A stretch of 64,000 nucleotides of DNA from Christensenella sp. UBA7571 (lineage in GTDB: Bacteria; Bacillota; Clostridia; Christensenellales; CAG-917), in NCBI GenBank assembly GCA_002476605.1, contig DLLD01000004.1, positions 11,472 through 75,471 of the forward strand. Reading direction: 5' to 3'. How positions within the stretch are numbered: position 1 is the stretch's first letter; each line of letters starts with the position of its first letter. A program made the position numbers and the translations under genes. Under the pieces are notes generated by a model that was not told the DNA's origin, searched no databases, and saw nothing but the letters and a program-made list of their open reading frames with translations. Shown piece by piece: positions 14,162-61,980 of this stretch.

Positions 14162-14683
14162 ATGAGCGAGTATAGATTGAAAGTGCCGTTTGACAAAGAC
14201 GAAATAAAATCACTAGTGGCGGGGGATAGAGTTTACCTCACAGGCAAGATTTTGACGGGTAGAGACGCCGCGCATAAACGACTTTTCGAGTGCGTAAAAA
14301 ATGGTGAGGCGTTTCCCGTAGATTTGAAAGGTCAAGCGATATATTACGTTGGTCCGTGTAGAAAGGACGGCAAAATCGTTTCGGCAGGACCGACTACATC
14401 TATGCGTATGGACGCGTTTGCGCCCGCGCTTTACGACGAGGGCGTGCTTGCCACAATCGGCAAAGGTGATAGAAGCAAGGACGTGTACGACGCAATCGTG
14501 AGAAACGGCGGCGTATATCTTGCAAGCGTAGGCGGTGCGGGCGCACTGTACGCGCAGTGCATAAAGAGCGCAAAAGTGCTTGCTTACGAGGACTTGGGAA
14601 CGGAAGCTATATACGAGTTTGAGGTTGAAAATATGCCGTGCATCGTGGCAATAGATTGTTTGGGACAAACAATCTATAAGTGA
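14162..14683 (+). CDS. Class I fumarate hydratase / tartrate dehydratase family, beta subunit
   Basis: ATG 14162 (MSEYRLKVPF...) follows GGTGA. LTGKILTGRDAAHKRL, GPTTSMRMD and GKGDRS are typical of the beta (FumA C-terminal) type. It starts 7 nt after the alpha stop. Confidence 0.88.
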   Translation: MSEYRLKVPFDKDEIKSLVAGDRVYLTGKILTGRDAAHKRLFECVKNGEAFPVDLKGQAIYYVGPCRKDGKIVSAGPTTSMRMDAFAPALYDEGVLATIGKGDRSKDVYDAIVRNGGVYLASVGGAGALYAQCIKSAKVLAYEDLGTEAIYEFEVENMPCIVAIDCLGQTIYK

Positions 14684-14785
14684 TATTTTTGGCTTGCGCC
14701 AAAAGTGATATTCTCGCTACGCGAGAGTGATATTTGCGCGTTGCGCAAGTGATATTCGCACTGCGTGCGAGTTTTGGAATATTCC
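14680..14785 (-). repeat. Hairpin-heptamer array 1 (4 units) plus GGAATATTCC palindrome
   Basis: On the plus strand, GTGATATT starts at 14680, 14705, 14727 and 14749. Each is followed by a perfect small hairpin (ttttggc-ttgc-gccaaaa, tctcgc-tac-gcgaga, ttgcgc-gtt-gcgcaa, tcgcac-tgc-gtgcga). GGAATATTCC lies at 14776-14785. The first GTGATATT overlaps the TGA stop of the fumarate hydratase beta gene. Confidence 0.85.
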
Positions 14786-15796: not shown

Positions 15797-15875
15797 TGAC
15801 GAAATACGGAAAAATAATAGACAAAACGGCGAAAGTGTATGCTTGGAGTGGTATTTGCCTAGTGGCAAATTATAT

Positions 15876-15975
15876 TGCGACTTTGTCGCAGTGATATTCT
15901 CGCTATGCGAGAGTGATATTTTTTGCTTGTGCAAAAAGTGATATTTGCGCGTTGCGCAAGTTGTGGAGAATTTTA
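15876..15975 (-). repeat. Hairpin-heptamer array 2 (4 units) plus degenerate copy of the GGAATATTCCAC module
   Basis: On the plus strand: tgcgac-ttt-gtcgca, GTGATATT (15891), tctcgc-tat-gcgaga, GTGATATT (15913), ttttgc-ttgt-gcaaaa, GTGATATT (15938), ttgcgc-gtt-gcgcaa. Then GTTGTGGAGAATTTT, whose complement AAAATTCTCCACAAC resembles GGAATATTCCACAAC. Confidence 0.85.
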
Positions 15976-16960: not shown

Positions 16961-17106
16961 ACAAATGCGGTTTATGGTAATAAATGCGCTTGTTGCCATC
17001 ACCGCAATGAAGTTTGAGCAACTGGTTGCGCGGTAGAAATTTCGAGGACAAATGCGGTGATCGGCAACAAATATCGTTTGTTGTCGTGACCGCAATGCCG
17101 TTTGAG
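16937..17106 (+). repeat. Tandem ~85-nt direct repeat (2 copies) immediately upstream of the giant-protein promoter
   Basis: Copy 1 is ~16937-17020 (GGCTGTGCGGTAGTAGTTGCGAGAACAAATGCGGT...CACCGCAATGAAGTTTGAG). Copy 2 is ~17024-17106 (GGTTGCGCGGTAGAAATTTCGAGGACAAATGCGGT...GACCGCAATGCCGTTTGAG). Roughly three quarters of positions are identical by eye. Confidence 0.75.
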
Positions 17107-17115
17107 AAATATGTA

Positions 17116-17144
17116 TTGACATTTATATCGTTTTTGTGTAATAT
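17116..17144 (+). promoter_or_regulatory. Sigma-70-type promoter of the giant surface-protein gene
   Basis: TTGACA (17116-17121), 17-nt spacer ending in TGTG, TAATAT (17139-17144), about 75 nt upstream of the ATG. Confidence 0.55.
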
Positions 17145-17217
17145 TGTAATGTATAAAAATTTGCGTATGTGCGCGAGCGCGTATATACGCATAACACCAA
17201 AACCCGAGGTGGAAATT

Positions 17218-20200
17218 ATGATGAGAAACAAAAAAGAGTTGAAAGGTTTTCTTCTCACGGCAACGAGACTGATCGTGTTGGCGTTGGTCTTCGTCACGGC
17301 GTTTACGGTTGCGTTGACTTCCGATTTTGGCCAAAACATCGATTTCGGCGGTATTGCATTTGCAGAACGCACATACAAAGATGTGAAGAATGAAGTTACT
17401 TTCGGCAAGGCAAATCCGATTTTACCCGACCAAGGTGCAATAACGGCTGAAAGTTTTGACTTCCCGAACGTTGTGTCCCCGTGGATTTTTACGGCAACGT
17501 ATTATAGTGTTTCGCCCCACGCCACGACGAATAACGACAACGATCCAAAGAACAACGTCGAAATTTACAAAAACGACGGTGATACGAAATTGTTCTTGGG
17601 AAACGATACCCCGGGTACTTTTGACGGCGGTGTTACTAACGGCTATTCCGCAAACGATTTGAATATGGTTCTCAATTTCGAAACGGGTAGCTTTATTAAT
17701 GAAATTTTGAATTCGGGTAAATACACGGTTACTGCGGAGATAAAAGCAAATTTTTCAATGAACTCCGAAGCAGATGAAATGTTCCCGAGCGCCGTTGCGG
17801 GTCCTGCAAGACTTACGGGACAAAAAGCGTATCAACTTAGAAAAAACGGCGATGGAAATTACTCATACGGTTTCAATACTCTCGGCTCTAACGCATCGGG
17901 GCATACGACGACGGTAGAACTTACTTCTTCCAAAAAGTATCTTTCGTTGGCGTTTGGAATGCATTACGCTTGGAAAACGTCGTCAAGAGAACGTTATATG
18001 AGTATGTCAAACATCTCGATTACGTTCACTATTAAAGCAAAGGATAGTCTCGTCGGAGCAGACAATGCGGGTCCGGTTGCTACGGGTACTTATAAGGGAC
18101 TTGAAAACGGTTTTGTAAGCGGTACGAGCGGAAACGGGTATGTGCCGTATATTGCTAATAAATCTGATTATTATCTCTACGAGTATATCGGAGAGGCATC
18201 AAAATATATCAAAACGGATAGTGTGGCCGGCGGATCGGGTAAGTTGGCTTCCTATACCAATTCATACGTTAAGGACGGAACGAGCAATGCGAACGTGCCC
18301 GGAATTGCTAATTCACCGTATTATAAATTCGCTCAAACGGAATTCGTAAGCACTTATAACGGCACTGGAAAATCCATTAGCGAGTTGATTGAAGAGTATG
18401 CCCAAAATCCGGATAGTTTCGATACGTCGCAATTGTCAAAAATCGGTGCCGCCGATAAAACGGTTTCCGGTTTAACTGCGTCGGGACTTACGTGGACAAG
18501 CGCAAATAATCTGAGTAAAGTTTCAAAGATTATGTACGTTAAAATCGGAGATACCGAGTTCAAATTGTACAATTCAAGTGAAACTTATACGAAAGAGTTG
18601 AAAGTTACCGAAGATGAGGTTCAACAAACGGTTGGTTATGCAAAAATCACTAAAACGACCGACGCAAGAATTGTAGTGAGTTTGTATTTTACAAAGAATT
18701 GCACCGTTCAAACTACGGTTGTCGATTATAGCGGTGCAAAAACCATTACGCGTCTTGAAGTTACGGGTATTGACACCAGCCTCAACGACGACGGCACGCC
18801 TATATCTGACAACGATTATATGAAAGCGGACGCTTCCTCGCTTGCTTGGCTTTATTCCAATATTTTGGAAGTCGGTTCGGAATTCGAGATCCCCGAAGAT
18901 ACGAGTGCGGCAAACTATTCCCCGAGACTTTGGTTCTTCACGGCTCAAAGAGCGGACGAACTTGCGGGGCTCGGCAGTGCGCACGTGTTTGCGTCCATTG
19001 CGGAGTTGCTCGCTTCGGGACTTAAACCCATAGGCGTGGGTGAGGGCTTCACCCTCGATTACAACTTTGCGGACGGCAAGGCAAAGAGCTACGGTTCGTC
19101 CATATACGACGCTATCGGCACGCTCGGCGCGGACGGCAAGGTTACGAGCGAAAGCAACGCAAAAGGACACGGATATTATCTCTTCACGTTCTATACGATT
19201 GACCTTGCGGGCAATATGAGCGCAACCACGTCTTCGTACTACGTGAAAGTGGACTCCGATACGCCCAACTATAACGTTGACTTGTCCTATATCCTCAAAA
19301 CGGACGGAAAGAAACAAACTATCTCCGCTTCTCAAAACGGAACGTGGGCAAAGGGCGTTACGACGCTCGACATTTTGCTCGGCGCGCTCGGTTTCTCGGG
19401 CAATACGCTCGTGTTCGAGGACTTGATGTCCTATCACGTCTTCAAGTTTGAAAACGCAATCGTAGACGGCGTTTATACGAGCAAACTTGCTTCTTACTAC
19501 AACTCGCTTACCTCAACGGGTGCTACTGCGGTCGAAAACGACGAGATTACCATCACTCTCTCGGGTGAGGGCGGAAATCATACCGTTACCGTCAAATATA
19601 TCTTCGAGGCACGCACCAATAGCGGAATTTTGCGCTTCGTCATCGACGCGGACAGCATCGAATGGACGACGGCGTTTACGCTCTACACGGGCGGATTCGC
19701 AACCGTTGACGAGATGGACTTCCATCAAGGTCAAAGCTACGTCGACTCTTCGTGGGTGGGCGGTGTCAAGGTGCTCATCGATACGGACGCGCCTATCGCT
19801 CCCGAGTTCGTGTCGGGTGACGATACGCCTTACAGCAAGAACTTCGACAGTTACGAGGCGTTGCCCTCTTATAGCGACAGACAATGGTACACGGGTGCTT
19901 ACGACAAATACTCCGCAAGCATCGACTTTACCGACGTATTTCTTTCAAGCGAATACGGCAAGGACGTCAGAGTGTATTACGGCATCAAGGTCGTGCAAAA
20001 TCTCACACAGCTCGCTCAACTTGGAGATAAGGGTATCGAGGGCGTTTACGGCACGATAACCGACAATACCGCGGGATATTTCGACAGATTGCAATACGTC
20101 ACGGGCGACAATATGACCGAAGGCGGTACGGTGCTCGAAAACGGCGCAATGAATATCGTCAACGGCGTGGTCGGTATGCGCGTTATCTACGTGTGGGCAG

Positions 20201-23200
20201 TCGACCAAGCGGGCAACGTGTCCGACCTCAAAACCTACTACGTACTTGCGGATAACACCACTTATACGCTTTCCGCAAAAGTGGGTAAAAACTCCGTTGC
20301 GGACGCTTCGGCAAGTATCGCTTCCGTCGACGCTGACGGCAACGCTTTGACCAAATTCACGAGAGGTGAAGTGGCAACGCTCGCTACCGTGCTCGGTGAA
20401 GACTTCGTGCCGTTTGCACTCACTCTTACCGTCAACGGCAAAGCAAACAAAGTGCTTTACAACTATATGCCGTCTCGCGATTGGACGATTTCCGACGCAA
20501 ATAACGAAGATTATATCAATTACGCACAAGACGATTCGATAAAATTTGCAATCGACGACAAGGACAACCTCGGTATGCTCGACAACGCAAAGACGCTCGA
20601 TATCGAGTTTGCGTACAGAAAAGTGGTGGATTATACCGTCACCAACTCTACGGTTGCGTACAATTCTCGTCCGATTTCCGTTGAAATGACGTTTACGGAC
20701 GCGGTGTCGGCTTCGAGTTTCAGCTATCGTTACTTTGACGAGAACGGCGTGGAACTCCCGCAAGCTCCAACCAATCCCGGCAACTACTTCGTAGAGATTT
20801 ATATCGACAAAAACAACGTAAACTACGTTACGGCAGACTTCAATATGGACGGAGAGGGCAACCAACTCTTCAATAGAATTGCGGTCACAGTTACAAAAGG
20901 TAGAATCGTCGTCAGCGCAGTCGAAACCAACGCGCCTTACGGCACGGACCTTGCGGATATCCTCAAATACACCGTCTCGGGTATCGCACTCGAAGATATG
21001 GCAAAAGAGGGTATAACCGAGGCTATGCTCGCGCTTGCTCTCGACGTTGCGAATTACGACTCCAAGGGCTTCTATTCAGTCGGCTTCTACAACGTCGTGC
21101 TTAAAGACAATACGCTTCTCAACGGCGTTGCAAACTACGATATCACGTTTATGACGGCTCAACACCGCGTAACGCAACGCAATATCGACGTTTATACGCA
21201 AGCCGCAACCAAAGCGTACGGCGACGCAGATCCCAAATTCTACTTTGGCGTAAAAGAAAGCGATCTCACGTTCAACACCTCCAAGACGGTGCAAGATATC
21301 CTTGCGGAAATCTTCGACGCAACGTCTTATACCTCCGCGGGCAAGGAAAACGGCTTCTACCTTTACGAGGCGGGCGACCGTATCACTCGTGCAAAGGGTG
21401 AGGACGTATGGAACTACGCTTTCAACACCGACGCAAGCTTGTTCGACGTCGGAAGCAATTACAGAATAACCCTTCAAACGCAAGAAGGCTTCACCATCAC
21501 TCAAAGACAAGTGCAAATTGACGTAAGCGGTCAATTCGCAGTGGTCAAGAGCGGTGTTACGCCGTCTTCCGAAGGTATCGTGCCGAGCTACACGCTCGAC
21601 GCAAAAGACGCGTTCCTTGCAGAGGTCATCGAAAGCTTGCTCAACGGCAAACTCTCTCTTGCAACGGACGGCACGGTTTTGAGCGACTACGACGCAACGA
21701 AGTACGACGGAGCAACGGGCTTCGATATTATACTTGCAAGCATCAACGACGGCAATATCGCAATCTCGCTCAAATCGCAAGAGCAATACGTAATTTACAT
21801 CGCAAAAGCGGGCACGGTTATCGTCAAAGCGATTAGAGAATTCACCTACGTTTACGGTGAAACAGTGCCGTGGGTGAACACGTACGACGCAAAAGACTTT
21901 ACCTACGAGTGCGACGACGAAAGCGTGGCGTTCGACCGTATCGACTGGATTATGCACTTGTCTTACGCGGAAGAGTATATTCCGGTTGGTAGATACGTTG
22001 CGACGTTCTCCGACGTGAAACTCTATAAGGACGGCGTGGAAATCGAAGGTGCAAACGTCAACGTAGAGCCCGCAATCGTCAATATCACGCCCGCAACGGT
22101 GCAAATCAGACCCACCGCAACGGCGTTTGACAAAGTGTACGGCGAGGCAGACTCTGTATACGGCATCGGTTACGAAATCGTCAAAGTAAACGGTGAAACT
22201 ATTGCAAAAGACGGCAGTTACGCGGGTATTGGTTACAACGATTTGCTCGCAAACGTAAGCGGTTCTTTCGCAAGAGCAAAATACAACAAGAACGGTGAAT
22301 TTACCGCATACGGCACTCGTTACGACGGCGTTTTGACGGACGACAACTATTATTACGGTTACGTCGTCAACAAGGCGTTTGCAATCGACAACGACAACTT
22401 CGTGATAAACGCGGTGGTCGACGTTGAATATAAGGACGTACGCTTTACGGTTTCTCCCAAGGCAATCGTAATTCACACCGCAAACCTCGTCGGTTTGAGC
22501 AAGTACTTCAACGGCAACGACGTCGTCGACTACGACGCGGCGGGCGTAACTATGTACGACCTCACCTCTCAACTCGTGCTTGCGACGGACAAAGTCAAAC
22601 TCGTTGCAAACGACACGAGATACACCGAAATCGGTGACGGCAAGAGCGACGTTGCTTCGCATATCGTGTTCGGCGGATTTGCACTCACGGGTGAACAAAG
22701 CGCAAACTACACGCTTGCTTATATCGTCAACGACGGTCATACGAGCATTAGAGTGCTCGGTGGCAAAGACGGTGAAAACTTCGTCATCGACGGCACGACG
22801 GTTGAAATCGTGTATATCGACAACTCTCATTCCGACGGCGCAAAGAGCGACTATATCTACATTATGTTCAAGCGCGTGGGCGTCACCAAGAACGACGTGT
22901 CCATCGTCAAGGAATACGACAACACCAACGTACTTTACGCAGACAACGTCATCATCGCGTCCAGCGAGACGGACTACGCAAGCACGGCAATGCTTATCGG
23001 CGCAGACAAGAAGTTGATCGTCGAAGAGAGCGGTGTGTTCTCGGGCGTAAAAGCGGGTGAGGGATACCTCATTTCAAAGGTCAAAGTGGTGTTTACGTTT
23101 GCAAACGGAGACCTCTCCGCGGGCAGTGTATACGACTACAAAGACAACGACGTGGATATCAGAGTGGTAGGCAACACCATCGAGCTTACCGTGCGCAACG

Positions 23201-26200
23201 TCAAGGCAAAGATCGCAAAGAAGAAACTTAACGCTTCGAGCTTTGCAACCGTCGCACCAGTCAATCGCGACTACAACGCGACGACGAGCGTTGACGTCAA
23301 TTATACCTTTGCGGACAACGCACTCGTTACGGGTGACAGCGTAGAGTCCGTAGGTCTCAAACTTGCGGGTACTGCAAACGGCAAAGACTTCGGTCAACAT
23401 CAAGTGACGATCTCCGCGGAAAACACCAAGGTTTCCAACGCAAACTACGAAGTGGACGTCAACGACATCAACAACGAATTTGCGGGTCTCACCGTCGAAA
23501 TCGCAAAGGCAAGACTTATGCCCAACGTCGCGTTTGAAAGCAAAGTTTACGACAACACGACGGACGTTAAAGCGACCAAGAGAAGCGGAAACGACTTTAC
23601 CACGCTCTATTATGCGGACAACCTCAGAGAGGAACTTGCGCATATCACTATGGGCGCGGGCGTGACGTACGAACTCTCTTACGCGGGCGCACCCGACGCA
23701 AACGTAGCGGTTGACGCCGACGGCAACGAAATCGGACACAACGTTATGGTTTCCGGTCTCGTCATCAGCGCGGACGACGCGTCTATCCTCAAAAATTACA
23801 GAATTTACGGTTCGGTTTACAGCGGATCGGAATATATGGCGTTTGAAGACGCACAAATCGGCACGATTGCTGACTACGAGATTTTGCAAGCCGTCAAGGT
23901 GTCCAAGAAGAACGTCAAACTCATCACCAACGACTTCCAAATCGGTCAAAAAGTGTACGACGGCTCGGTGAACGCTACGATAACCATTCAAGTTCCCGTC
24001 GACGGCGAAAACAGAGAAGGTGTGCTTGCTATCCACAAAGACTTGCTCGAAATCGTTGCGGACGGTACGTTTGCTTCCGCAAAAGTGGGCAAGAACATCA
24101 AAGTTACCGTGTCCACTCCGCAATTGAAATTGAAGAGTGGTAATGGAATAGATAGTAGAATAATAAATAACTATTATCTTGATAAATCCGCGGGCGCGTA
24201 CGCGAGCAACATTACGGGTACTATCGTAGAAAAGCCCGTAACGGTTGAAGTCGACCTCGGCGAAAGAGTATATACGGGATATTCCGATATTGTTAAGAAC
24301 AAGATAACCTACACTCTCAACGGCGTTATCGAAAAGGAAATCCGCAACTACAACGTCGCAACGGGCGGCGGAGCGTACTTCATCGACAAGAACGTCGTGC
24401 TCGACGCGGACAGAAACGTCGATTTCAAGGACGGCAACGTGTACAATCCCACGCTCACCAATATGGGCGGTTTCGATATCAACTACGTGTTGACGTACAG
24501 AACGGAGACGAGAGAAGACGGCCGTGACGACGATATGCTCGCATACGAGGACGAAAACGGCGTGCATTATTACGAAGTGCCCGCAAATAGCGCGGTAGTT
24601 ACGGCGTACTATTACAGATTGCGCACGGTGTCCAAGTATATCGACGATGCGGACAAGACCGTCGCAAAAGACTATATCGTAGGTCGCTACAAAGTGAACG
24701 GTGAAGAGGTCTACCTCGTGTCAGACGACTATACCGGCAATACCAAGAACCTCGACGCCCCGATGACCTATCTCGCGGGCAAAGGTAAAATCAATCAAAG
24801 AGGCGTGTACATCACCGCAAACAGTATCGCAAAACTCGATACGGACGTTGCAAACAAGATGTACAACAAGCAATACGACGGTACGACCAAGTTCTACGGC
24901 ACGATTGACGGCACTAACCCCGCAACCGACGCGTATAGACTTACCTCAACGGGTATCGCAAACGTCATCAAGGGTGACGACGTGCATATCGCAAACGTAT
25001 CCGCAGAATATAACAGCGCGTACACCAACGCAATGTACGTAGTGTTTACGGCTTCCGGTCTCGACGGCAAAGACGCGGACAACTACACGATTGAAAGCTC
25101 CAACAGCGGTGCAAGCAGTGATACCTACACTGCAAAATTGTCCGCAAAGATCCAAAAACGTGCTATCACCGCAAGTTTGCAAGACGGTGAAATGGTATAC
25201 GGCACTGCGCTCGGCAACGTCGGCGGTACGGTTGACTACACGCTTGTCGGCGCGGACGCCACGTCGTACGCTTTGACTTGGAACGCTTCGCTCAAATCCT
25301 TCTTTATCGCAACGACGGACTTCCTTGCGGTAGTCGGATTGGAAGATAACCAAGACAATGCAAAATACCTCGCTCAAATCGACGCTTACACCTATAACCT
25401 CGTAGACGGTGAGTACGTCAAAGCGGAAAACGGTGTGAGAGGCGCGTATTTCAGACTCGGCGGTGAAGTGGGCAACGCTATTTCGAGCTTGCCGAAGCCG
25501 ACGACGAGATTCAACTCCAACAAACCGAACGCGGGTGAGATTTCCAACTCCTACTACCTTGCGGACGGCAGTGCAAACAACTTCGGATTCAAGTTCGTTT
25601 ACACGGGCAACGGCAACGACGGCACAAGCAGACTCGTGGTAGTCAAGAGAACGCTTTACGTTACCACCGCGGGTATCAACCACGTCAAGACGTACGCGGG
25701 CACCGATCCTGCGATCGACCTCTTGTTCGACGGTATCGCTTCGGGTGACGGATTGAGCATTTTCGTGAATTCTAACGGCGTGGATTATCGCCCGATCGTG
25801 GTGCTTGCGGTGTACAATTCGCTCACGGGTGAATACACCGTAGCCGACAAATACGCAAAGACGAGCGACAAACTCGGCGCAAACGAATATTACGTCTACT
25901 ACCTTGCTCTTCCGATCGGACTTAACAGTTACGACGACTTTGCACCGATAAGAAACTACAACGTCGTCATCGGTGACGCGTCTACGCTTCAAGCAATCAC
26001 CGTAAAGGACGAGAGCGGTAACGTCGTCAAGGACGCAAACGGCAAAGATACGTACGAATTCGCATATTCCTTCGCAAACGGTGAAATCACCAAGAAGGCG
26101 TCTACGATCACAATCAAGCTTCCCGAAATGGACGGTATCAGCATCGATACAACCAACAACAGCTTCACTTACACCTACGACAAGGCACTCGGCAAGGGCG

Positions 26201-27585
26201 TAAACAGAGTTTACGACGTGCTTAAAGGCGTAAAGCCCGAAGACGAAGTGAGATACGTCAAGGACGGTGAAGAGAAAGAAGCAAGCGACGCGGGTACGCA
26301 TACCGGTTACGTGTACGTCAAACGCTTCGTCAAGGTTGACGCCGACGATCCCAACGGCTACTTCATCGAGTGGAGAAGCACGGACGAGGTGACTATCGTC
26401 ATCGAAAGAGCGTCCGCACAACTCAAAGCGGCGGCTTCCTACGTCTACTACAACGGAAAGGCACAATCTTATCCCGTCAATTCCATAACCGTGCACGAAG
26501 GCATCGTCAACGGCTTGGTCGCGGGTGATTACGAGATGTCCTACAAGCTCTACAAAAACGGTCAATACGAAGACGTGCTCAACCCCGCAGAAATCAAGAA
26601 CGCCGGCACTTACGTTGTAACGTTCCGCCTCACCGACGCATTCGAGACCAACAATCCCAACTACAAGAAGGAAGAAGTCGAGTCCAAATTCGTCATCAAT
26701 CAAGTGGTCGTCAACGTAACTATCGACAAGACGGGGTACAGCGCAACCACCGAGGTACAACAAGACAAGTCCAGCGTCACCAAGCTCAGAGCGACGTACG
26801 ATCCCAACGCGGATTACACCATCGATTACTCCTTGGCTATGGGTGACGGATATAGAAACAATTCCGCAATCGAAATCACCAAGGCTATGACCAAATTGGC
26901 GTTTGCAAAGGACGCAAGCGGAAACGAGAAACAAATCACGGGCGCGGGTAAATACTCCTTCACGGTGTCCATCACCAACGAGGATATTGCCGGCAACTAC
27001 GCTTTGGTCGGCAACGCGGGCGTGCTCGAACTCACCGCAAACGCATTCGATAGCGACGGCGGTTCTATCAAAGTTGACGGTGAAGGCATCGTTGCCAATA
27101 GACTTGCCGTAAGAGATATCACGAGCAGTATTATCGCAAGCGATATCAACTACGTTGCGGTCATCAAGCAATTTATGCCGGCACTCTCCTCGGCGGCAGG
27201 TCTCAAAGACGACGCACGCGTGGCGGCGGTCGTAAAGATGGAACTCTATTGCGACAATCAACTCGTCGTCCTCGACGGTGAAAACACTTCCGTCAGCGTC
27301 GCGATCCCGAGCACCGTCAGAAAAAATATGAAGGGCATTGCTCTTTACACCGTAACCAAAGACGGTACGCTCAAAAAACTCACCGACTACACCGTCAACG
27401 ACGGCAAGATCGAGTACACCACCGATTACGTGTCAGCACTCGTCTTCGTCGACGTCAATCCGCCCTCGCTCGAACCGTGGGAAATCGGCGTAACAGTCGG
27501 CACTATCCTCGTCGTGCTCATCATAGTCGTGGCGAGTGTGGTGGGTATCGTTGTCCGCAAGAAACACTTGCAAAAACTCATTTAA
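17218..27585 (+). CDS. Giant (~3455 aa) cell-surface repeat protein: N-terminal signal/anchor, long beta-rich region, many MBG/YDG-type repeats, C-terminal TM anchor
   Basis: ATG-ATG at 17218/17221 follows GAGGTGG. The N-terminus MMRNKKELKGFLLTATRLIVLALVFVTAFTVALTS is signal-like. Recurrent ...I.(K/P)..(L/V).(I/V)....(K)(V/A)YG(D/E)ADP... and ...KVYDG(S/T)... units (KAYGDADPKFYFG, KVYGEADSVYGIGYEI, QKVYDGSVNATITI, KQYDGTTKFYG, KTYAGTDPAIDLLF) resemble MBG-domain adhesins. The C-terminus WEIGVTVGTILVVLIIVVASVVGIVVRKKHLQKLI is a TM helix plus basic stop-transfer. No LPXTG motif is present. Confidence 0.85.
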   Translation: MMRNKKELKGFLLTATRLIVLALVFVTAFTVALTSDFGQNIDFGGIAFAERTYKDVKNEVTFGKANPILPDQGAITAESFDFPNVVSPWIFTATYYSVSPHATTNNDNDPKNNVEIYKNDGDTKLFLGNDTPGTFDGGVTNGYSANDLNMVLNFETGSFINEILNSGKYTVTAEIKANFSMNSEADEMFPSAVAGPARLTGQKAYQLRKNGDGNYSYGFNTLGSNASGHTTTVELTSSKKYLSLAFGMHYAWKTSSRERYMSMSNISITFTIKAKDSLVGADNAGPVATGTYKGLENGFVSGTSGNGYVPYIANKSDYYLYEYIGEASKYIKTDSVAGGSGKLASYTNSYVKDGTSNANVPGIANSPYYKFAQTEFVSTYNGTGKSISELIEEYAQNPDSFDTSQLSKIGAADKTVSGLTASGLTWTSANNLSKVSKIMYVKIGDTEFKLYNSSETYTKELKVTEDEVQQTVGYAKITKTTDARIVVSLYFTKNCTVQTTVVDYSGAKTITRLEVTGIDTSLNDDGTPISDNDYMKADASSLAWLYSNILEVGSEFEIPEDTSAANYSPRLWFFTAQRADELAGLGSAHVFASIAELLASGLKPIGVGEGFTLDYNFADGKAKSYGSSIYDAIGTLGADGKVTSESNAKGHGYYLFTFYTIDLAGNMSATTSSYYVKVDSDTPNYNVDLSYILKTDGKKQTISASQNGTWAKGVTTLDILLGALGFSGNTLVFEDLMSYHVFKFENAIVDGVYTSKLASYYNSLTSTGATAVENDEITITLSGEGGNHTVTVKYIFEARTNSGILRFVIDADSIEWTTAFTLYTGGFATVDEMDFHQGQSYVDSSWVGGVKVLIDTDAPIAPEFVSGDDTPYSKNFDSYEALPSYSDRQWYTGAYDKYSASIDFTDVFLSSEYGKDVRVYYGIKVVQNLTQLAQLGDKGIEGVYGTITDNTAGYFDRLQYVTGDNMTEGGTVLENGAMNIVNGVVGMRVIYVWAVDQAGNVSDLKTYYVLADNTTYTLSAKVGKNSVADASASIASVDADGNALTKFTRGEVATLATVLGEDFVPFALTLTVNGKANKVLYNYMPSRDWTISDANNEDYINYAQDDSIKFAIDDKDNLGMLDNAKTLDIEFAYRKVVDYTVTNSTVAYNSRPISVEMTFTDAVSASSFSYRYFDENGVELPQAPTNPGNYFVEIYIDKNNVNYVTADFNMDGEGNQLFNRIAVTVTKGRIVVSAVETNAPYGTDLADILKYTVSGIALEDMAKEGITEAMLALALDVANYDSKGFYSVGFYNVVLKDNTLLNGVANYDITFMTAQHRVTQRNIDVYTQAATKAYGDADPKFYFGVKESDLTFNTSKTVQDILAEIFDATSYTSAGKENGFYLYEAGDRITRAKGEDVWNYAFNTDASLFDVGSNYRITLQTQEGFTITQRQVQIDVSGQFAVVKSGVTPSSEGIVPSYTLDAKDAFLAEVIESLLNGKLSLATDGTVLSDYDATKYDGATGFDIILASINDGNIAISLKSQEQYVIYIAKAGTVIVKAIREFTYVYGETVPWVNTYDAKDFTYECDDESVAFDRIDWIMHLSYAEEYIPVGRYVATFSDVKLYKDGVEIEGANVNVEPAIVNITPATVQIRPTATAFDKVYGEADSVYGIGYEIVKVNGETIAKDGSYAGIGYNDLLANVSGSFARAKYNKNGEFTAYGTRYDGVLTDDNYYYGYVVNKAFAIDNDNFVINAVVDVEYKDVRFTVSPKAIVIHTANLVGLSKYFNGNDVVDYDAAGVTMYDLTSQLVLATDKVKLVANDTRYTEIGDGKSDVASHIVFGGFALTGEQSANYTLAYIVNDGHTSIRVLGGKDGENFVIDGTTVEIVYIDNSHSDGAKSDYIYIMFKRVGVTKNDVSIVKEYDNTNVLYADNVIIASSETDYASTAMLIGADKKLIVEESGVFSGVKAGEGYLISKVKVVFTFANGDLSAGSVYDYKDNDVDIRVVGNTIELTVRNVKAKIAKKKLNASSFATVAPVNRDYNATTSVDVNYTFADNALVTGDSVESVGLKLAGTANGKDFGQHQVTISAENTKVSNANYEVDVNDINNEFAGLTVEIAKARLMPNVAFESKVYDNTTDVKATKRSGNDFTTLYYADNLREELAHITMGAGVTYELSYAGAPDANVAVDADGNEIGHNVMVSGLVISADDASILKNYRIYGSVYSGSEYMAFEDAQIGTIADYEILQAVKVSKKNVKLITNDFQIGQKVYDGSVNATITIQVPVDGENREGVLAIHKDLLEIVADGTFASAKVGKNIKVTVSTPQLKLKSGNGIDSRIINNYYLDKSAGAYASNITGTIVEKPVTVEVDLGERVYTGYSDIVKNKITYTLNGVIEKEIRNYNVATGGGAYFIDKNVVLDADRNVDFKDGNVYNPTLTNMGGFDINYVLTYRTETREDGRDDDMLAYEDENGVHYYEVPANSAVVTAYYYRLRTVSKYIDDADKTVAKDYIVGRYKVNGEEVYLVSDDYTGNTKNLDAPMTYLAGKGKINQRGVYITANSIAKLDTDVANKMYNKQYDGTTKFYGTIDGTNPATDAYRLTSTGIANVIKGDDVHIANVSAEYNSAYTNAMYVVFTASGLDGKDADNYTIESSNSGASSDTYTAKLSAKIQKRAITASLQDGEMVYGTALGNVGGTVDYTLVGADATSYALTWNASLKSFFIATTDFLAVVGLEDNQDNAKYLAQIDAYTYNLVDGEYVKAENGVRGAYFRLGGEVGNAISSLPKPTTRFNSNKPNAGEISNSYYLADGSANNFGFKFVYTGNGNDGTSRLVVVKRTLYVTTAGINHVKTYAGTDPAIDLLFDGIASGDGLSIFVNSNGVDYRPIVVLAVYNSLTGEYTVADKYAKTSDKLGANEYYVYYLALPIGLNSYDDFAPIRNYNVVIGDASTLQAITVKDESGNVVKDANGKDTYEFAYSFANGEITKKASTITIKLPEMDGISIDTTNNSFTYTYDKALGKGVNRVYDVLKGVKPEDEVRYVKDGEEKEASDAGTHTGYVYVKRFVKVDADDPNGYFIEWRSTDEVTIVIERASAQLKAAASYVYYNGKAQSYPVNSITVHEGIVNGLVAGDYEMSYKLYKNGQYEDVLNPAEIKNAGTYVVTFRLTDAFETNNPNYKKEEVESKFVINQVVVNVTIDKTGYSATTEVQQDKSSVTKLRATYDPNADYTIDYSLAMGDGYRNNSAIEITKAMTKLAFAKDASGNEKQITGAGKYSFTVSITNEDIAGNYALVGNAGVLELTANAFDSDGGSIKVDGEGIVANRLAVRDITSSIIASDINYVAVIKQFMPALSSAAGLKDDARVAAVVKMELYCDNQLVVLDGENTSVSVAIPSTVRKNMKGIALYTVTKDGTLKKLTDYTVNDGKIEYTTDYVSALVFVDVNPPSLEPWEIGVTVGTILVVLIIVVASVVGIVVRKKHLQKLI

Positions 27586-27712: not shown

Positions 27713-27737
27713 TTTTTGGTTTATATGGTATTTTTCT

Positions 27738-27778
27738 AATATTCCAAAATTATTAATTATTAATTATTAATTATTAAT
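27738..27778. repeat. AATATTCCAAAA half-palindrome followed by (TATTAAT)x4 heptamer microsatellite
   Basis: TATTAAT repeats exactly four times at 27751-27778. The same composition, in the opposite orientation, lies at 46811-46858 next to GGAATATTCC. Confidence 0.8.
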
Positions 27779-27840
27779 TCACCTCTCCGTGAGTTTTCGC
27801 TTAAAAAACTTTTAATACACACTTCTTCGACATTTTGGAC

Positions 27841-27895: not shown

Positions 27896-28357
27896 ATGCG
27901 TATGGCAAAAGTTGCTGTCGGTTGCGATCACGGCGGTTTCCCGCTCAAAGATGCCGTTGTGGCTACGCTTAAAGATCTCGGTGCTGAGGTCGTCGATTTC
28001 GGTTGCGACTCGACCGAGTCCGTGGATTATCCCAAGTATGGCTACAAAGTGGCAAAAGCAGTTGCAAGCGGTGAGTGCGATCTCGGCGTTATAATGTGCG
28101 GTACGGGCATAGGCATTTCAATTGCCGCCAACAAAGTCAAAGGCGTAAGGGCGGGACTTGCCACCAACGCTTTTATGGCGGAGATGACCAGACGCCACAA
28201 CGACGCCAACGTTTTGGCACTCGGCGGACGCGTGGTTACGCCCGAAGAGGCAAAGGAAATCGTGACGGCGTGGTACAACGCGTCGTACGAGGGCGGAAGA
28301 CATCAAAGACGCCTTGATATGATAAATGAAATTGAGGAAATAGAGCGCAATGATTGA
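27896..28357 (+). CDS. rpiB: Ribose-5-phosphate isomerase B (RpiB/LacAB family)
   Basis: VAVGCDHGGF, VIMCGTGIGISIAANKVKGVRA and EGGRHQRR are RpiB signatures. ATG 27896 lies 6 nt after GGAG (27886-27889); starts at 27884 or 27902 cannot be excluded. Confidence 0.9.
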   Translation: MRMAKVAVGCDHGGFPLKDAVVATLKDLGAEVVDFGCDSTESVDYPKYGYKVAKAVASGECDLGVIMCGTGIGISIAANKVKGVRAGLATNAFMAEMTRRHNDANVLALGGRVVTPEEAKEIVTAWYNASYEGGRHQRRLDMINEIEEIERND

Positions 28358-28685
28358 CGAGGTATTGAAAGATATAAGAGAGGCGGAGGCAAAAGCCGAG
28401 CAAATCGCACAAGACGCGTACGCGGAGGGCAAACAAATAGTTTTGCAAGCGGAACTCGACGCTCAAAAGCAAAAGAAAGCCACTTTGCTCGAATGTAAGG
28501 ACGACCAACGCAACGCACTCGCCGCCGCGGAAAAACGCGCAAACGCCAAGCGTGAGGAAATCCTCAAAAAAGGTCAAAAAGCGGCGGATCAACTGATTGA
28601 GGACAAAAATTCCGACGTCGAAGAGCAAGCGGACAAACTTGTGGAAGTGCTTATCGCAAAGTATTGCGGTGAGAAAGAAAATTAA
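28350..28685 (+). CDS. ntpF: V-type ATPase peripheral-stalk subunit (E. hirae NtpF / subunit G-like)
   Basis: 111-aa Ala/Lys/Glu/Gln-rich coiled-coil protein (IREAEAKAEQIAQDAYAEGKQIV...). It sits at the first position of a V-ATPase operon whose order is that of ntpFIKECGABD. The ATG overlaps the rpiB stop (ATGATTGA). The call rests mainly on position and composition. Confidence 0.6.
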   Translation: MIDEVLKDIREAEAKAEQIAQDAYAEGKQIVLQAELDAQKQKKATLLECKDDQRNALAAAEKRANAKREEILKKGQKAADQLIEDKNSDVEEQADKLVEVLIAKYCGEKEN

Positions 28686-28696
28686 TAATTTTCTTT

Positions 28697-28947
28697 GCGC
28701 CGAGTGCTAAACACGTGTCACTTATCTCTACGAGATAACTTGACACATATTTAGGCGCAAACGTCCTGCACAAAAGCAATCGGAGCATTGCTTTTGTGCG
28801 TAAGGTCTCACAACCTTGAGACGGCTCGGCGGTTGCTCGGATAGAAAGTTGATGCTCACAATTAGTCTTCGTGGAGTTATAAACTACGGCTCCGCCTGTC
28901 TACGAGCGTCGTTAGGCGCAATAAATTGCGCTAATGGAATATTCCAC
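28697..28947 (+). repeat. ~250-nt multi-hairpin intergenic element, copy A
   Basis: Near-identical to 59965-60216, with about 15 differences including a 1-nt indel by manual alignment. It contains the hairpins GTGTCAcTTATCTC-tac-GAGATAAcTTGACAC, GCACAAAAGCAAT-cggagc-ATTGCTTTTGTGC and GTCTCA-caacct-TGAGAC, and ends in GGAATATTCC (28936-28945). Confidence 0.9.
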
Positions 28948-28950
28948 ATC

Positions 28951-29087
28951 TGCGCCTACGGCGCAATATCCACTTTTAGCCATAGGCTAAGAATATCACT
29001 TGTGCGTAGCACAAATATCACTGCACCGTAGGTGCAATATCACTCTCGCGAAGCGAGAATATCACTGCGACGAAGTCGCATATCAGT
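28951..29087 (+). repeat. Hairpin-heptamer array 3 (6 units), ending exactly at the ntpI start codon
   Basis: The units are tgcgcc-tac-ggcgca ATATCCAC, tagcc-ata-ggcta..ATATCAC, ttgtgc-gta-gcacaa ATATCAC, tgcacc-gta-ggtgca ATATCAC, tctcgc-gaa-gcgaga ATATCAC and tgcgac-gaa-gtcgca TATCAGT. The last four units start at 29000, 29022, 29044 and 29066, an exact 22-nt phase. Confidence 0.9.
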
Positions 29088-31669
<2,582 letters not shown>

Positions 31670-46814: not shown

Positions 46815-46848
46815 AATTAATAATTAAAAATTAATAATTAATAATTGC

Positions 46849-46970
46849 GGAATATTCCACAAACAAATGCGCCGAAGGCGCGCACACCAAGCAAGCGATA
46901 TGGCGAAATTGTGGCGGGAATATCAATCCTTCTATGATTGATAGCGTGTATCGGTTGCGCGGTAGTAGAG
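46849..46970 (+). repeat. Intergenic module D, copy 2 (GGAATATTCCAC + TGCGCC hairpin + CCAAGCAAGCGATATGGCGAAATTGTGGC ... GGTTGCGCGGTAGTAG)
   Basis: See 16787-16960. It begins with the perfect palindrome GGAATATTCC (46849-46858), which is preceded by a TAAT-rich tract (46811-46846). Confidence 0.7.
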
Positions 46971-47039
46971 CAATAAGACTAGCGTGGCACTAGACAATGA
47001 ACTTGTGAGTTGTCTTTGACACAGCGACGACTTTTGCGG

Positions 47040-47112
47040 TTATCACTTGCGCGTAGCGCAAATATCACTGTTGCATAGCAACAATATCACTCTCGCTATG
47101 CGAGAATATGAG
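47040..47112 (+). repeat. Hairpin-heptamer array 4 (3 units) running into the SD of the next gene
   Basis: TTATCAC, ttgcgc-gta-gcgcaa ATATCAC, tgttgc-ata-gcaaca ATATCAC, tctcgc-tat-gcgaga ATATGAGG. Hairpins start at 47047, 47069 and 47091 (22-nt phase). The last heptamer is replaced by ATATGAGG, which supplies the GAGG SD for ATG 47122. Confidence 0.9.
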
Positions 47113-59132: not shown

Positions 59133-59755
59133 TTCTCGGTATAGACCAAAACGCGTCGCAAAGCGAAATCCTCGAAGCGTACAAAACCAAACGTGCCCAA
59201 TATCAAGAGCACGTCTTTGACGAGGGAGAGGCGGGCGCGCAAGCGGCTCGTATGCTCGAACAGCTTGACAACGCCTACCAACAAGCGATGGAATCCGCAC
59301 AAGAAGCTGCCACCGTCACAGGTGAGGGTGAGTCCGCTTTCGAGGCGGTCAAGCAAGCCATTCGCAACAAGGACGTGGAAACCGCTCAACGCGAACTTGA
59401 TAAAATGTCCACCCGCGGTGCGGAATGGCACTATTATCAGTCCATCGTCTTTTACGAGAAAAACTGGCTCAACGACAGCAAAAAGCAGTTGGAACTTGCC
59501 ATCGAAATGGATTCTTCCAACCCAAAGTATTCTCGCGCGCTCGAAAACCTCAAAAAGAAGATAGACGGCTCACGCCCCTACGATAAAGAAGGTTCAAAAG
59601 GCGTTTACGGCAAGAACGATACCACTCACACCTCTCGCACCTATTCTCAACGCGACTCCGACGTCGCCGACGGAATGTGCGCCGCTTGTCAAGCGCTTTG
59701 GTGTGCGGATTGTTGTTGTGAGTGTATGGGTGGCGACTTGATTCGATGCTGTTAA
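59111..59755 (+). CDS. J-domain-like / TPR-like protein with C-terminal cysteine string
   Basis: ATG 59111 follows AAAGGAGAAG and overlaps the upstream gene by 22 nt. The N-terminus NPFVILGIDQNASQSEILEAYKTKRAQY is J-domain-like, but I see no HPD tripeptide. The C-terminus is CAACQALWCADCCCECMGGDLIRCC. Confidence 0.6.
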   Translation: MPTNPFVILGIDQNASQSEILEAYKTKRAQYQEHVFDEGEAGAQAARMLEQLDNAYQQAMESAQEAATVTGEGESAFEAVKQAIRNKDVETAQRELDKMSTRGAEWHYYQSIVFYEKNWLNDSKKQLELAIEMDSSNPKYSRALENLKKKIDGSRPYDKEGSKGVYGKNDTTHTSRTYSQRDSDVADGMCAACQALWCADCCCECMGGDLIRCC

Positions 59756-59768
59756 AATGTGCTAAACG

Positions 59769-59942
59769 GCGAATAACTGCGTCAGACGGCTTCGTTCACC
59801 CAGTCACGTACGCATAGTACGTTAGGCTGTGTGCCCAAAGCCATCTTCCTTGTTCTTCATCCGTTTATCGCATTTTATCAAGCAACGACAGATGTTGTTA
59901 AACACGCTATGTTCTTCATCTCAATATCGCGTTTTACCAAGC
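59769..59942 (+). repeat. Gene-3' module C, copy 2 (with duplicated tail)
   Basis: GCGAATAACTGCGTCAGACGG, then a hairpin with apical CACGTAC-gcata-GTACGTT, then TTCCTTGTTCTTCATCCGTTTATCGCATTTTATCAAGC, then a second tail GTTCTTCATCTCAATATCGCGTTTTACCAAGC. Confidence 0.75.
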
Positions 59943-59964
59943 ATCTAAACGCTGTTGCTGATTT

Positions 59965-60216
59965 GCGCCGAATGCTAAACACGTGTCACTTATCTCTACG
60001 AGATAACTTGACACATATTTAGGCGCAAACGTCCTACACAAAAGCAATCGGAGCATTGCTTTTGTGCGTAAGGTCTCACAACCTTGAGACGGCTCGGCGG
60101 TTGCTCGGATAGAAAGTTGATGCTCACAAAGATTTCTTCGTGGAGTTATAAACTACTGCTCCGCCTATCTACGAGCAACGTTAGGCGCAATAAATTGCAC
60201 TGACGGAATATTCCAT
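59965..60216 (+). repeat. ~250-nt multi-hairpin intergenic element, copy B
   Basis: See 28697-28947. Same orientation, same three hairpins, and it ends in GGAATATTCC (60205-60214). Confidence 0.9.
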
Positions 60217-60313
60217 ATTTGTTGTGCTTTATTGAAATGATAATATGGAAAATTAGATTTATATAACTATAAAAAATAAATAAAACAAAAGCAAAACAAG
60301 TAAACACAATGTT

Positions 60314-60348: not shown

Positions 60349-61980
60349 ATGACAAACAAAACACCTGTTGACAACATCATCGAATTGCGCAACGTCTACA
60401 AAGAGTACGACGGAAAGCAAGTGGTCAAAAACGCCAGCCTCACCATAAAACGAGGCGAATTCGTTACGCTTTTAGGTCCGTCGGGTTGCGGTAAAACCAC
60501 GACTTTGCGTATGATTGCGGGCTTTGAAATGCCCACGAGCGGAAAAATCATCTTCAACGGCAAGGACATTACAGACACTCCTCCGCACTTGCGTCCTCTC
60601 AACACGGTGTTCCAAAAGTACGCCCTTTTCCCGCACCTCAACGTTTTCAATAACATTGCCTTCGGATTGAAACTCAAAGTTATCCCCAACGGCACGAAAG
60701 TCAACAAGAAAGGTGAAACGGTGCAACTTTTCAGAAAGTACACCAAGGCGGAAATCAAAACGAAAGTAAACGACGCACTCAAAATGGTTGACCTCGAAGA
60801 CTACGGACACAGAAACGTATCGTCACTCAGCGGCGGACAACAACAACGCGTCGCAATCGCGCGCGCGCTCGTCAACGAACCGGAAGTGTTGCTCCTCGAC
60901 GAACCGCTCGGTGCACTCGACCTCAAAATGAGAAAAGATATGCAACTCGAACTTATGGATATGCACAAGCGCCTCGGCATTACGTTTATTTACGTAACGC
61001 ACGACCAAGAAGAGGCACTTACGATGTCCGACAAGATCGTGGTTATGCGCCTTGGTGAAATTCAACAAATCGCGTCCCCCGAAAAGGTGTACGACGAGCC
61101 CGCAAACGCTTTCGTTGCGGACTTCATCGGAGAAAGCACCATTCTTTCGGGCGTTATGCTGGAAGACTACAAAGTCGAGTTCTGCGACACGGTATTCGAG
61201 TGCGTGGACAAAGGATTTAAGCACAACGAGCCTATCGACGTTATCATTCGTCCCGAGGACGTAAAAATCAAGAAAGTCGACGACAAAAAGACCATTCTCA
61301 CGGCGGAAGTGCTTTCGTCCGTATTTAAGGGGGACCACTATCAAATCACGCTTCTTGCCAACGGCAACGAAATCGTGGCGCACGACACCGATACGTACGA
61401 AGTCGGTGAAACGGTTGGCATCTACATCAAGCCGTTCGACCTTCACATTATGCACAAAACTCGTATCATCAACGAGATCGACACCGTTATCACGGGAGAA
61501 AACCTCGTGGAAATCTGCGGTGTGGACTTTGAGTGCAAGACGGATCTCGAAGTGGGCACTCCCGTCAAGGTCTCCGTTGACTTCGACGACGTGGAAATCC
61601 TCGACGACGAGGAAGACGGACAAATCGGCGCAACCGTACTTTCGTCCATTTACAAAGGCAGTTATTATCAAGCGATACTCTCCACCGACGAGCATTATAT
61701 CTTCTTTGCCGACACAGACGACGACTGGCTCAAAGGCGACCGCGTAGGCATCAAGATCGCGCCCGAAAAGATTATCATCGAAAAACGCGACGTAGAAGAA
61801 GTCGTGGAAGAGAAAGTCGTAAAAGACGAAACTTTGACGGCGGAAGAGCAAGCCGCAATCGAAGAAGCGCGCAACCAAGAAGTAGAAAAATTCGACGCAG
61901 TTGAGGAAATCATCAGCGAAGCCGAAGAAAAAGACGCTCAATCGAGCGACGCCGAAGTCAAGGAGGACGACGCGGAGTGA
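60349..61980 (+). CDS. potA: Spermidine/putrescine ABC transporter ATP-binding protein with duplicated C-terminal TOBE-like domain and acidic tail
   Basis: Walker [35 protein letters not shown] and LLLDEPLGALD. At 543 aa it is far longer than the usual ~370 aa. Confidence 0.9.
   Translation: MTNKTPVDNIIELRNVYKEYDGKQVVKNASLTIKRGEFVTLLGPSGCGKTTTLRMIAGFEMPTSGKIIFNGKDITDTPPHLRPLNTVFQKYALFPHLNVFNNIAFGLKLKVIPNGTKVNKKGETVQLFRKYTKAEIKTKVNDALKMVDLEDYGHRNVSSLSGGQQQRVAIARALVNEPEVLLLDEPLGALDLKMRKDMQLELMDMHKRLGITFIYVTHDQEEALTMSDKIVVMRLGEIQQIASPEKVYDEPANAFVADFIGESTILSGVMLEDYKVEFCDTVFECVDKGFKHNEPIDVIIRPEDVKIKKVDDKKTILTAEVLSSVFKGDHYQITLLANGNEIVAHDTDTYEVGETVGIYIKPFDLHIMHKTRIINEIDTVITGENLVEICGVDFECKTDLEVGTPVKVSVDFDDVEILDDEEDGQIGATVLSSIYKGSYYQAILSTDEHYIFFADTDDDWLKGDRVGIKIAPEKIIIEKRDVEEVVEEKVVKDETLTAEEQAAIEEARNQEVEKFDAVEEIISEAEEKDAQSSDAEVKEDDAE

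Follow-up and report, generated by a model that had tools for sequence, protein, structure and literature searches.

The window (the whole stretch of 64,000 nucleotides analyzed here) belongs to the assembly G000 of Christensenella sp. UBA7571, which has 1.71 Mb in 19 contigs. A gene of 111 aa on the plus strand (28350..28685 in the list of open reading frames, stop TAA at 28683–28685) is followed, after 9 nt, by a repeated element of 251 nt (copy A, 28695..28945, plus strand). Behind the element comes an array of units made of a short hairpin and AATATCAC (28951..29087, minus strand), a separate repeat family known in Rfam as Gut-1; the match to RF01706 covers 28988–29067 on the minus strand with 55.7 bits, and the array extends to the start of ntpI at 29088. 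The 111-aa gene has no Pfam match. In every genome of the genus, its orthologue immediately precedes ntpI (24 genomes). Pfam assigns ntpI to PF01496 and the E subunit to PF01991. The stop codon of the 111-aa gene is the center of a perfect AT-rich palindrome, AAAGAAAATTA-A-TAATTTTCTTT (28674..28696, plus strand, read from the sequence). The spacer TAATTTTCT recurs at three unrelated gene ends, and the same 9-mer precedes the element behind other genes (L033, L153). Copy A is located inside the V-ATPase operon, directly before ntpI, and must therefore be read through, like the REPs inside operons. Further upstream in the window, an open reading frame of 3523 aa (17014–27585) ends ~300 nt before rpiB.

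A second copy of the element (copy B, 252 nt) is present at 59963..60214. By sequence and alignments, copies A and B are ~94% identical, co-oriented, and extend from TTGCGCC to GGAATATTCC. A repeat search of the window recovers them as two pairs of blocks, 28694–28861 with 59962–60129 (99%) and 28866–28952 with 60135–60221 (90%), all on the plus strand. The original prediction had described two highly similar copies in the same orientation, non-coding and with several hairpins, and all of this is borne out: no conserved open reading frame was found in the alignment of copies of the 250-nt element, and copy A has a folding energy of −92.1 kcal/mol, with z = −5.4 relative to dinucleotide shuffles, its first two hairpins being conserved. 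The reverse strand of copy A folds equally well (−93.0 kcal/mol, z = −6.1). Because no clean pair of empty and occupied sites was found (the candidates at C4:185470, C19:5119, C4:48692, and C1:81581 of G000, and others, have diverged or are filled by other modules), the boundaries of the element are those at which the similarity between copies ends.

Copy B is separated from the stop codon of a J-like gene (59753–59755) by a different stop-docked repeat family (59756..59962, plus strand, delimited by sequence comparison), which in five species also directly follows the stop of another gene. That family begins right after the stop codon (..GCGAATAACTGCG..) and contains tandem units of ~60–85 nt with CCTTGTTCTTCATC; within 59756–59962 there are also short copies of the last codons of the J-like gene (gatgctgttaa, gatgttgttaa, gctgttgctga). 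On the other side, 134 nt of AT-rich DNA with a promoter-like site (60232–60259) lead to a gene for a potA-like ABC ATPase (60349..61980, plus strand; PF00005, PF08402). The original prediction placed copy B between the J-like gene and potA; potA does lie downstream, but the junction is probably a chimeric join of two true copies. The metagenome contig ERZ808278.27 (L256), from the same sample and with flanks 100% identical to G000, links a different gene end (C1:59–458 of G000) to the same 3′ part of the element and potA, and its first hairpin is a variant with G at position 10 and the loop GCT. The contigs C1 and C9 of G000 terminate inside the element (C1:1–58 and C9:1–184), and the order J-like gene, element, C9 flank is found in three sister genomes (G012, G061, and G053) and in another metagenome. 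Since that contig, those contig ends, and the order in the sister species all disagree with the junction, we read it as a chimera, in which the first ~40–60 nt of copy B probably go with the J-like gene and the remainder with the copy upstream of potA. The join is most likely due to assembly, or else to a recombination between two repeat copies specific to G000. The orthologue of the copy B locus in G012 does not have the repeat found at 59756–59962.

The alignments of copies separate three modules: a hairpin H1, a pair of hairpins P2 and P3, and a 3′ block. H1 (28695..28760, plus strand) is an imperfect palindrome of 66–67 nt, as defined by the pair table, the solo matches, and a census of its loops. 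It has a conserved closing helix TTGCGCC/GGCGCAA with a GAATGC bulge, an inner helix of 13 bp with two invariant C·A positions on the plus strand (G·U on the other strand), and a 7-bp apical helix with a 3-nt loop. In subfamily I, the apical loop (28729–28731 in copy A) is hypervariable, with 14 triplets in ~38 copies, among them four reverse-complement pairs; the remainder of H1 hardly varies. Subfamily II has TTC as a fixed loop. H1 occurs also alone (matches to model positions 3–66) or joined to another module. P2 (28765..28805, plus strand), recognized by covariation, consists of the strands CCU.. ACACAAAAGCAAU and AUUGCUUUUGUG ..AGG around a conserved loop CRGAGC. At least four stem haplotypes surround this constant loop; nine of the 12 stem pairs are changed on both sides, and 99% of the cells are paired. 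A conserved linker, GTAAGG, leads to P3 (CAACC ... GGTTG, 28811..28835, plus strand, identified from covarying variants). Across the family, P3 is a covarying CAAYY...RRTTG stem with the variants CC/GG, CT/AG, and TC/GA, and with CAAAAG/CTTTTG in distant variants.

The 3′ module (28839..28945, plus strand, from the alignment) contains two invariant blocks, GATGCTCACAA (28851–28861) and CGGCTCCGCCTGTCTACGAG (28887–28906), a terminal hairpin GGCGCAAT-AA-ATTGCGCT (28915–28932), and GGAATATTCC (28936–28945). Alternative alleles of the terminal hairpin are GCGTGC/GCACGC and GCGCAC/GTGCGC. Subfamilies I (G000, G012, G017, and others) and II (G004, G009, G011, G015, and others) are ~80% alike. Distant variants, in four species, comprise the 5′ part only, with a much longer H1 and without the 3′ module; they retain TTGCGCCGAATG, GCGCAAACG, the CRGAGC loop, and TAAGG, and their stems differ. 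There are also long variants with an inserted foreign module of ~165 nt. Modules are joined at short strings that they have in common, CAC or TTAGGCGCA. Among the three hairpins proposed originally, the first two are real and conserved, and the third, GTCTCA/TGAGAC (28805–28810/28817–28822), is limited to subfamily I and overlaps P3. The proposed termination of the copies in GGAATATTCC likewise holds for subfamily I and fails for the other copies. The suggested closing helix GCCGAG/CTCGGC is not supported: in 21 of 25 copies, A·C stands at its sixth pair, and the distant variants have no partner sequence. The P2 loop CGGAGC could also pair with GCTCCG of the 3′ block as a pseudoknot, with 6 bp in subfamily I and five of these six in subfamily II; we did not adopt this pairing because the distant variants, which have no 3′ block, nonetheless keep the P2 loop. 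No promoter or terminator consensus was found within 28695–28945 or 59963–60214; neither copy has a GC-rich hairpin followed by a U tract, as expected of an intrinsic terminator.

A covariation analysis with RNAalifold, on a MAFFT alignment that was not fitted to any structure, gives 12 pairs with compensatory changes. In a second alignment, of 64 distinct sequences, which was fitted to the model structure and so favors pairing, 94.6% of the cells pair, versus 83.3% in column shuffles and 30%–43% with slid partners; 29 of the 52 pairs change on both sides, and none of 500 shuffles reaches the observed values. The structure of the element is under selection, and its helices are kept by compensatory substitution. 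The wobble states carry no strand signal (15 minor cells of the G·U type versus 14 of the C·A type). The invariant oppositions are the two C·A in H1, on the plus strand, and, nearly invariant, two U·G in P3. This wobble pattern would also be expected from a palindrome acting at the DNA level or from neutral drift in young copies.

The suggested count of copies, made by BLAST and a covariance model, yields ~14 loci in G000. About 10 of them are complete or interrupted by Ns; the others are cut by the ends of contigs C1, C4, C9, C12, C15, C16, C17, C19, and C5, as is commonly seen for repeats at which assemblies break. Runs of N inside copies are present in G000 at C4:26448–26605, C4:~163700, C5:93316–93368, and C12:117060–117138; they correspond to scaffold gaps at the repeat or to masked stretches, and metagenome contigs from the same sample read through them. 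The covariance model R1, built on the 5′ 145 nt of the element, was run on 108 genomes of the taxonomic family; 24 of them are carriers, with 1–15 copies each, and all 24 belong to a single genus out of 16. At the level of the order, the element is present in one of 150 genera. Most species of the carrier genus are without it. An exact-pattern scan of species-representative genomes returns 85 stretches, under the names "uncultured Clostridiales bacterium UMGS1366/1042," "Christensenella sp. UBA767/6880/7588," and "Firmicutes bacterium CAG:238/CAG:475," and the same pattern gives 76 stretches in metagenomes, where every named one is from human gut. We did not observe a match in viral contigs, phage records, or plasmids. 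The Rfam search, also among the suggested checks, leaves the element without a match: with Rfam 15 at the gathering threshold, only Gut-1 is reported in the whole window (28988–29067 and 14678–14760), and at E ≤ 10 the region 28500–29200 yields nothing on the element. A search of the literature found no published description of the 250-nt repeat.

The constant neighbor of the element is a stop codon. In 41 of 66 distinct genome copies, a co-strand open reading frame ends 0–10 nt before TTGCGCC. When loci from metagenomes are added, and open reading frames of at least 100 aa are required, the 5′ end lies 0–10 nt past a co-oriented stop at 56 of 104 distinct sites, behind ~32 different C-termini. 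For a random intergenic position and orientation, the corresponding probability is p = 0.027, from a crude gene call of G000, which gives P ~5 × 10⁻⁴⁷ for 41 of 66. The spacer lengths are distributed flatly between 0 and 10 nt and have no fixed sequence: some spacers are TAATT followed by three or four nucleotides and form a palindrome with the gene end (for example, AACAATTA-A-TAATTGTT), others are rich in TAA, and others are absent. The stop is TAA at 43 of the 56 docked sites, versus 58% genome-wide. A right end docked on a convergent stop was seen in just one of the 66 copies. For these 66 copies, the nearest open reading frame on the right is co-directional in 34 cases and convergent in 26, typically 50–350 nt away; the right-hand neighbor is variable and is usually parted from the element by other repeat modules. 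A variable neighbor on the right and a constant stop on the left assign the element to the end of the gene before it rather than to the operon that follows, contrary to the original association with downstream transporter and ATPase operons. The docking pattern could be due in part to short spacers in which insertions close to the start signals of the next gene are selected against. As to the spacers themselves, a general rule that the far arm repeats the gene end in inverted form was tried and rejected: it fits the junctions of the AATTAATAATT type only, and it fails where the spacer TAATTTTCT stands behind three different genes and at the many junctions without a palindrome.

The occupation of gene ends turns over rapidly. 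At the site of copy A, the element is present in G000 and G017, an array of AATTAATAATT with other modules replaces it in G012, and in the more distant species, the majority, the site is empty, with 20–45 nt between the 111-aa gene and ntpI. Four copies of G012 and G017 map to gene ends that are filled by other modules in G000. One gene end could be followed in 17 species, where it exists in five states: the 250-nt element in two species, behind the spacers aagtc and ataa; AT palindromes together with another module in three; a further stop-docked family in five; only a short plain spacer in six; and, in the remaining species, a deletion that reaches into the gene and is joined at GGAAGATTGG/GGAATATTCC. 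At the locus L207 (G017:C33), the orthologue of C16:15512 in G000, GGAATATTCC and a Gut-1 array have taken the place of ~15 codons at the end of a 497-aa gene; the join, at an internal GGAAGATTGG, is a repeat-mediated deletion into the coding region. Orthologous copies can differ by whole segments, for example by the allele of the 3′ hairpin at C15:4139, and in a tree of subfamily I copies the orthologues cluster only partly, with low support.

The modules recombine among themselves, with AT palindromes, with Gut-1 arrays, and with at least two further modules. AT palindromes of the AATTAATAATT type occur singly or in arrays on or after stop codons (28674–28696, 27731–27779, and 46815–46863 in the window), with variable outer bases complementary to the last codons of the gene; they share gene ends with the 250-nt element or replace it in sister species. 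The Gut-1 (RF01706) arrays at 28951–29087, 14678–14772, 15865–15961, and 47035–47109 usually start after a decamer like GGAATATTCC, and such a decamer also precedes the element at one gene end (GGAATATT|TTGCGCC). The decamer looks like a common joint between modules. At C11:26598–27037 of G000, which is orthologous to the site of locus L057 in G012, ~300 nt of a different GC-rich structured sequence stand in place of the element; G061 and G012 have similar sequence at their C16-type gene end. The ~300-nt sequence could represent a further structured element or else a leader resembling a riboswitch.

Several known families of repeats offer comparisons. The REP/BIME sequences of E. coli and other Proteobacteria (with REPINs mobilized by RAYT) are, like the element, intergenic palindromic mosaics between the genes of operons and at gene ends, and REPs are transcribed. 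They affect mRNA stability and stabilize the upstream mRNA (PMC3184786). According to the statement in PMC12306157 that cites Liang et al. (2015), 260 of 496 REPs of E. coli lie within 15 nt of a stop codon and lower the translation of the upstream gene; on that statement, about half of the REPs are within 15 nt of a stop, to be set against 54%–62% within 10 nt here. The element thus behaves as REP/BIME sequences do in being extragenic and enriched close behind stops (56 of 104 sites versus 2.7% expected). The differences are that a REP has ~35 nt and one hairpin, as against ~250 nt, 4–5 hairpins, and a strict polarity here, that most carriers here are without a RAYT/Y1 gene, and that the hosts are Firmicutes-type gut Clostridia. 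The REP/REPIN–RAYT arrangement, a RAYT encoded by the carrier and a short (20–40 nt) GC-rich palindrome often in inverted pairs, is not what we find. The BOX element of Streptococcus pneumoniae is likewise modular and variably combined, as boxA-boxB(n)-boxC, and is non-coding, multi-hairpin, transcribed, and non-autonomous (PMC3184786); the element is comparable in these respects, its transcription being presumed, and it has the separable modules in differing combinations that characterize the BOX and BIME mosaics. There is no sequence similarity with BOX, which is thought to be mobilized by an insertion sequence, whereas no insertion sequence was found here. To our knowledge, docking of BOX on stop codons has not been reported. 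ERIC/IRU of enterobacteria and the bcr1-type repeats of the Bacillus cereus group are, like the element, imperfect palindromes of 100–300 bp in intergenic regions, non-coding and patchy among close relatives, and these regions are transcribed. The bcr1 repeats have terminal inverted repeats and TTTAT duplications, both of which the 250-nt element lacks. For ERIC/IRU and bcr1, the comparison draws in part on the review PMC3184786, and their sequences and taxa are unrelated to the element. The Gut-1 RNA motif (RF01706; Weinberg et al. 2010, PMC2864571) occurs in the same organisms and in the same intergenic mosaics, its arrays standing directly behind many subfamily I copies, after GGAATATTCC, but it differs from the element in sequence and structure. 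The PATEs derived from IS200/IS605 and other hairpin elements mobilized by HUH enzymes are also without terminal inverted repeats and target-site duplications, with subterminal hairpins and a single orientation; they differ in having a conserved target of 4–5 nt on the left flank, which is not seen here, and the Y1 transposase is missing in most carriers.

We consider it rather probable that the element is an undescribed, genus-restricted family of non-coding, modular, interspersed repeats of the REP/BIME or BOX kind, although much larger (~250 bp with 4–5 hairpins). Purely selfish DNA without any role as RNA, in which the hairpins would serve as single-stranded or cruciform DNA for an HUH/Y1-like or other enzyme and the docking would be the target choice of that enzyme, appears unlikely to us, with points on either side. 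Both strands fold equally well, without asymmetry between G·U and C·A, the hypervariable apical loop of H1 with its reverse-complement pairs is as expected for the tip of a DNA palindrome, and the distribution is patchy, the turnover fast, and the left boundary sharp, with a subterminal hairpin. Yet the Y1/RAYT transposase domain PF01797, which 12 of 52 genomes of the genus encode, non-carriers among them, was found neither in G000 nor in 14 of the 18 carriers with multiple copies; single absences are soft, since these genomes are metagenome-assembled, and in the absence of a correlation with the carriers we rejected Y1/RAYT as the mobilizer. The left flanks end variously (ttct, taa, tgtt, tgag, tgat, agtc, atct, and others), without the conserved tetra- or pentanucleotide expected 5′ of the left end of an IS200/IS605-type PATE. 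These flanks are too variable for the strict polarity toward the upstream gene to be easily explained from DNA sequence alone. Moreover, no longer or autonomous element with the same ends was found among ~170 loci. The last result bears equally on a classical MITE, a deletion derivative of an insertion sequence with a DDE transposase, terminal inverted repeats, and target-site duplications. Of the three candidates named originally, a MITE-like element came nearest in spirit, as a dispersed repeat in many copies, and the small size, the non-coding sequence, and the copy number (~250 nt, 1–15 copies per genome) agree with it, as does in subfamily I a 10-nt motif TTGCGCCGAA at the left end with its inverse TTAGGCGCAA ~30 nt from the right end. 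That motif is subterminal and missing in subfamily II and in the distant variants, so that there is no family-wide terminal inverted repeat and none shared with an insertion sequence; a partner transposase is lacking. The proposed check for target-site duplications found none at any offset tried (in the best case, 5 of 32 and 6 of 53 copies have a common 3-mer, and there is none for k ≥ 4). We regard a MITE as extremely improbable.

A structured motif of 3′ UTRs selected by the host, for example a signal for protein binding or processing, with copies retained for function and not mobile, would agree with the conserved residues of loops and junctions, with stems that covary across subfamilies having entirely different stem sequences, and with the polar placement behind stop codons. 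It is very unlikely because most species of the genus do without the element, orthologous gene ends of sister species are free of it, the genes that would be served are unrelated, the modules are shuffled and truncated, and the copies break assemblies as repeats do. Both copies in the window lie upstream of genes for an ATPase or a transporter, which would fit a leader, a riboswitch, or a shared cis-regulatory module of the downstream operons (the two other original candidates being a structured RNA or leader and a cis-regulatory module) or an independent small RNA gene. However, the genes downstream from the 66 copies are unrelated, with the nearest long reading frame convergent in ~26; other repeat modules, or 134 nt of promoter-bearing DNA, intervene before the downstream start; the element has no promoter or terminator consensus; and there is no Rfam match. 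We see hardly any chance for this last group of explanations.

In the preferred reading, a REP/BIME- or BOX-like repeat family, the plus strand of the element would be transcribed as the 3′ UTR, or as an intercistronic part, of the mRNA of the upstream gene, since there is no terminator between the stop codon and the element. By analogy with REP elements, the hairpins may form a barrier to 3′-to-5′ decay. A terminating ribosome would already cover the beginning of the first helix, so the hairpins might also modulate termination and the expression of the upstream gene. Spread and turnover could proceed via recombination or gene conversion between the copies and the flanking shared modules, or, alternatively, through a mobilizing enzyme that would need the conserved hairpins; no known type of transposase fits. 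A more speculative proposal, which we think quite unlikely, is that the docking is no by-product of selection and results from an active, orientation-aware mechanism of insertion or copying that recognizes the end of a translated gene and is common to several repeat families. These would include the 250-nt element, the AATTAATAATT palindromes, and the family starting with AACAGCGAATAACTGCG; such a mechanism would need no known type of transposase and would have hit the same gene end in different species with spacers of 0–10 nt.

The analysis delimits a new, uncatalogued family of repeats and provides a usable covariance model of its 145-nt core, for gut Clostridia that are abundant and little known. 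Since these repeats fragment metagenome-assembled genomes and can produce chimeric joins, as seemingly at copy B, they matter to the users of these genomes. The orphan Gut-1 motif is placed in context as one module of a larger mosaic. The polarity and the proximity to stops across ~32 unrelated genes, without RAYT, extend the observation on the REPs of E. coli to a distant phylum and to a larger element, and offer a second system for asking whether such repeats tune termination or mRNA decay and how gene ends are reached. More interesting still is that several unrelated repeat families of the genus seem to be placed so close to stop codons, at a distance of a few bases.
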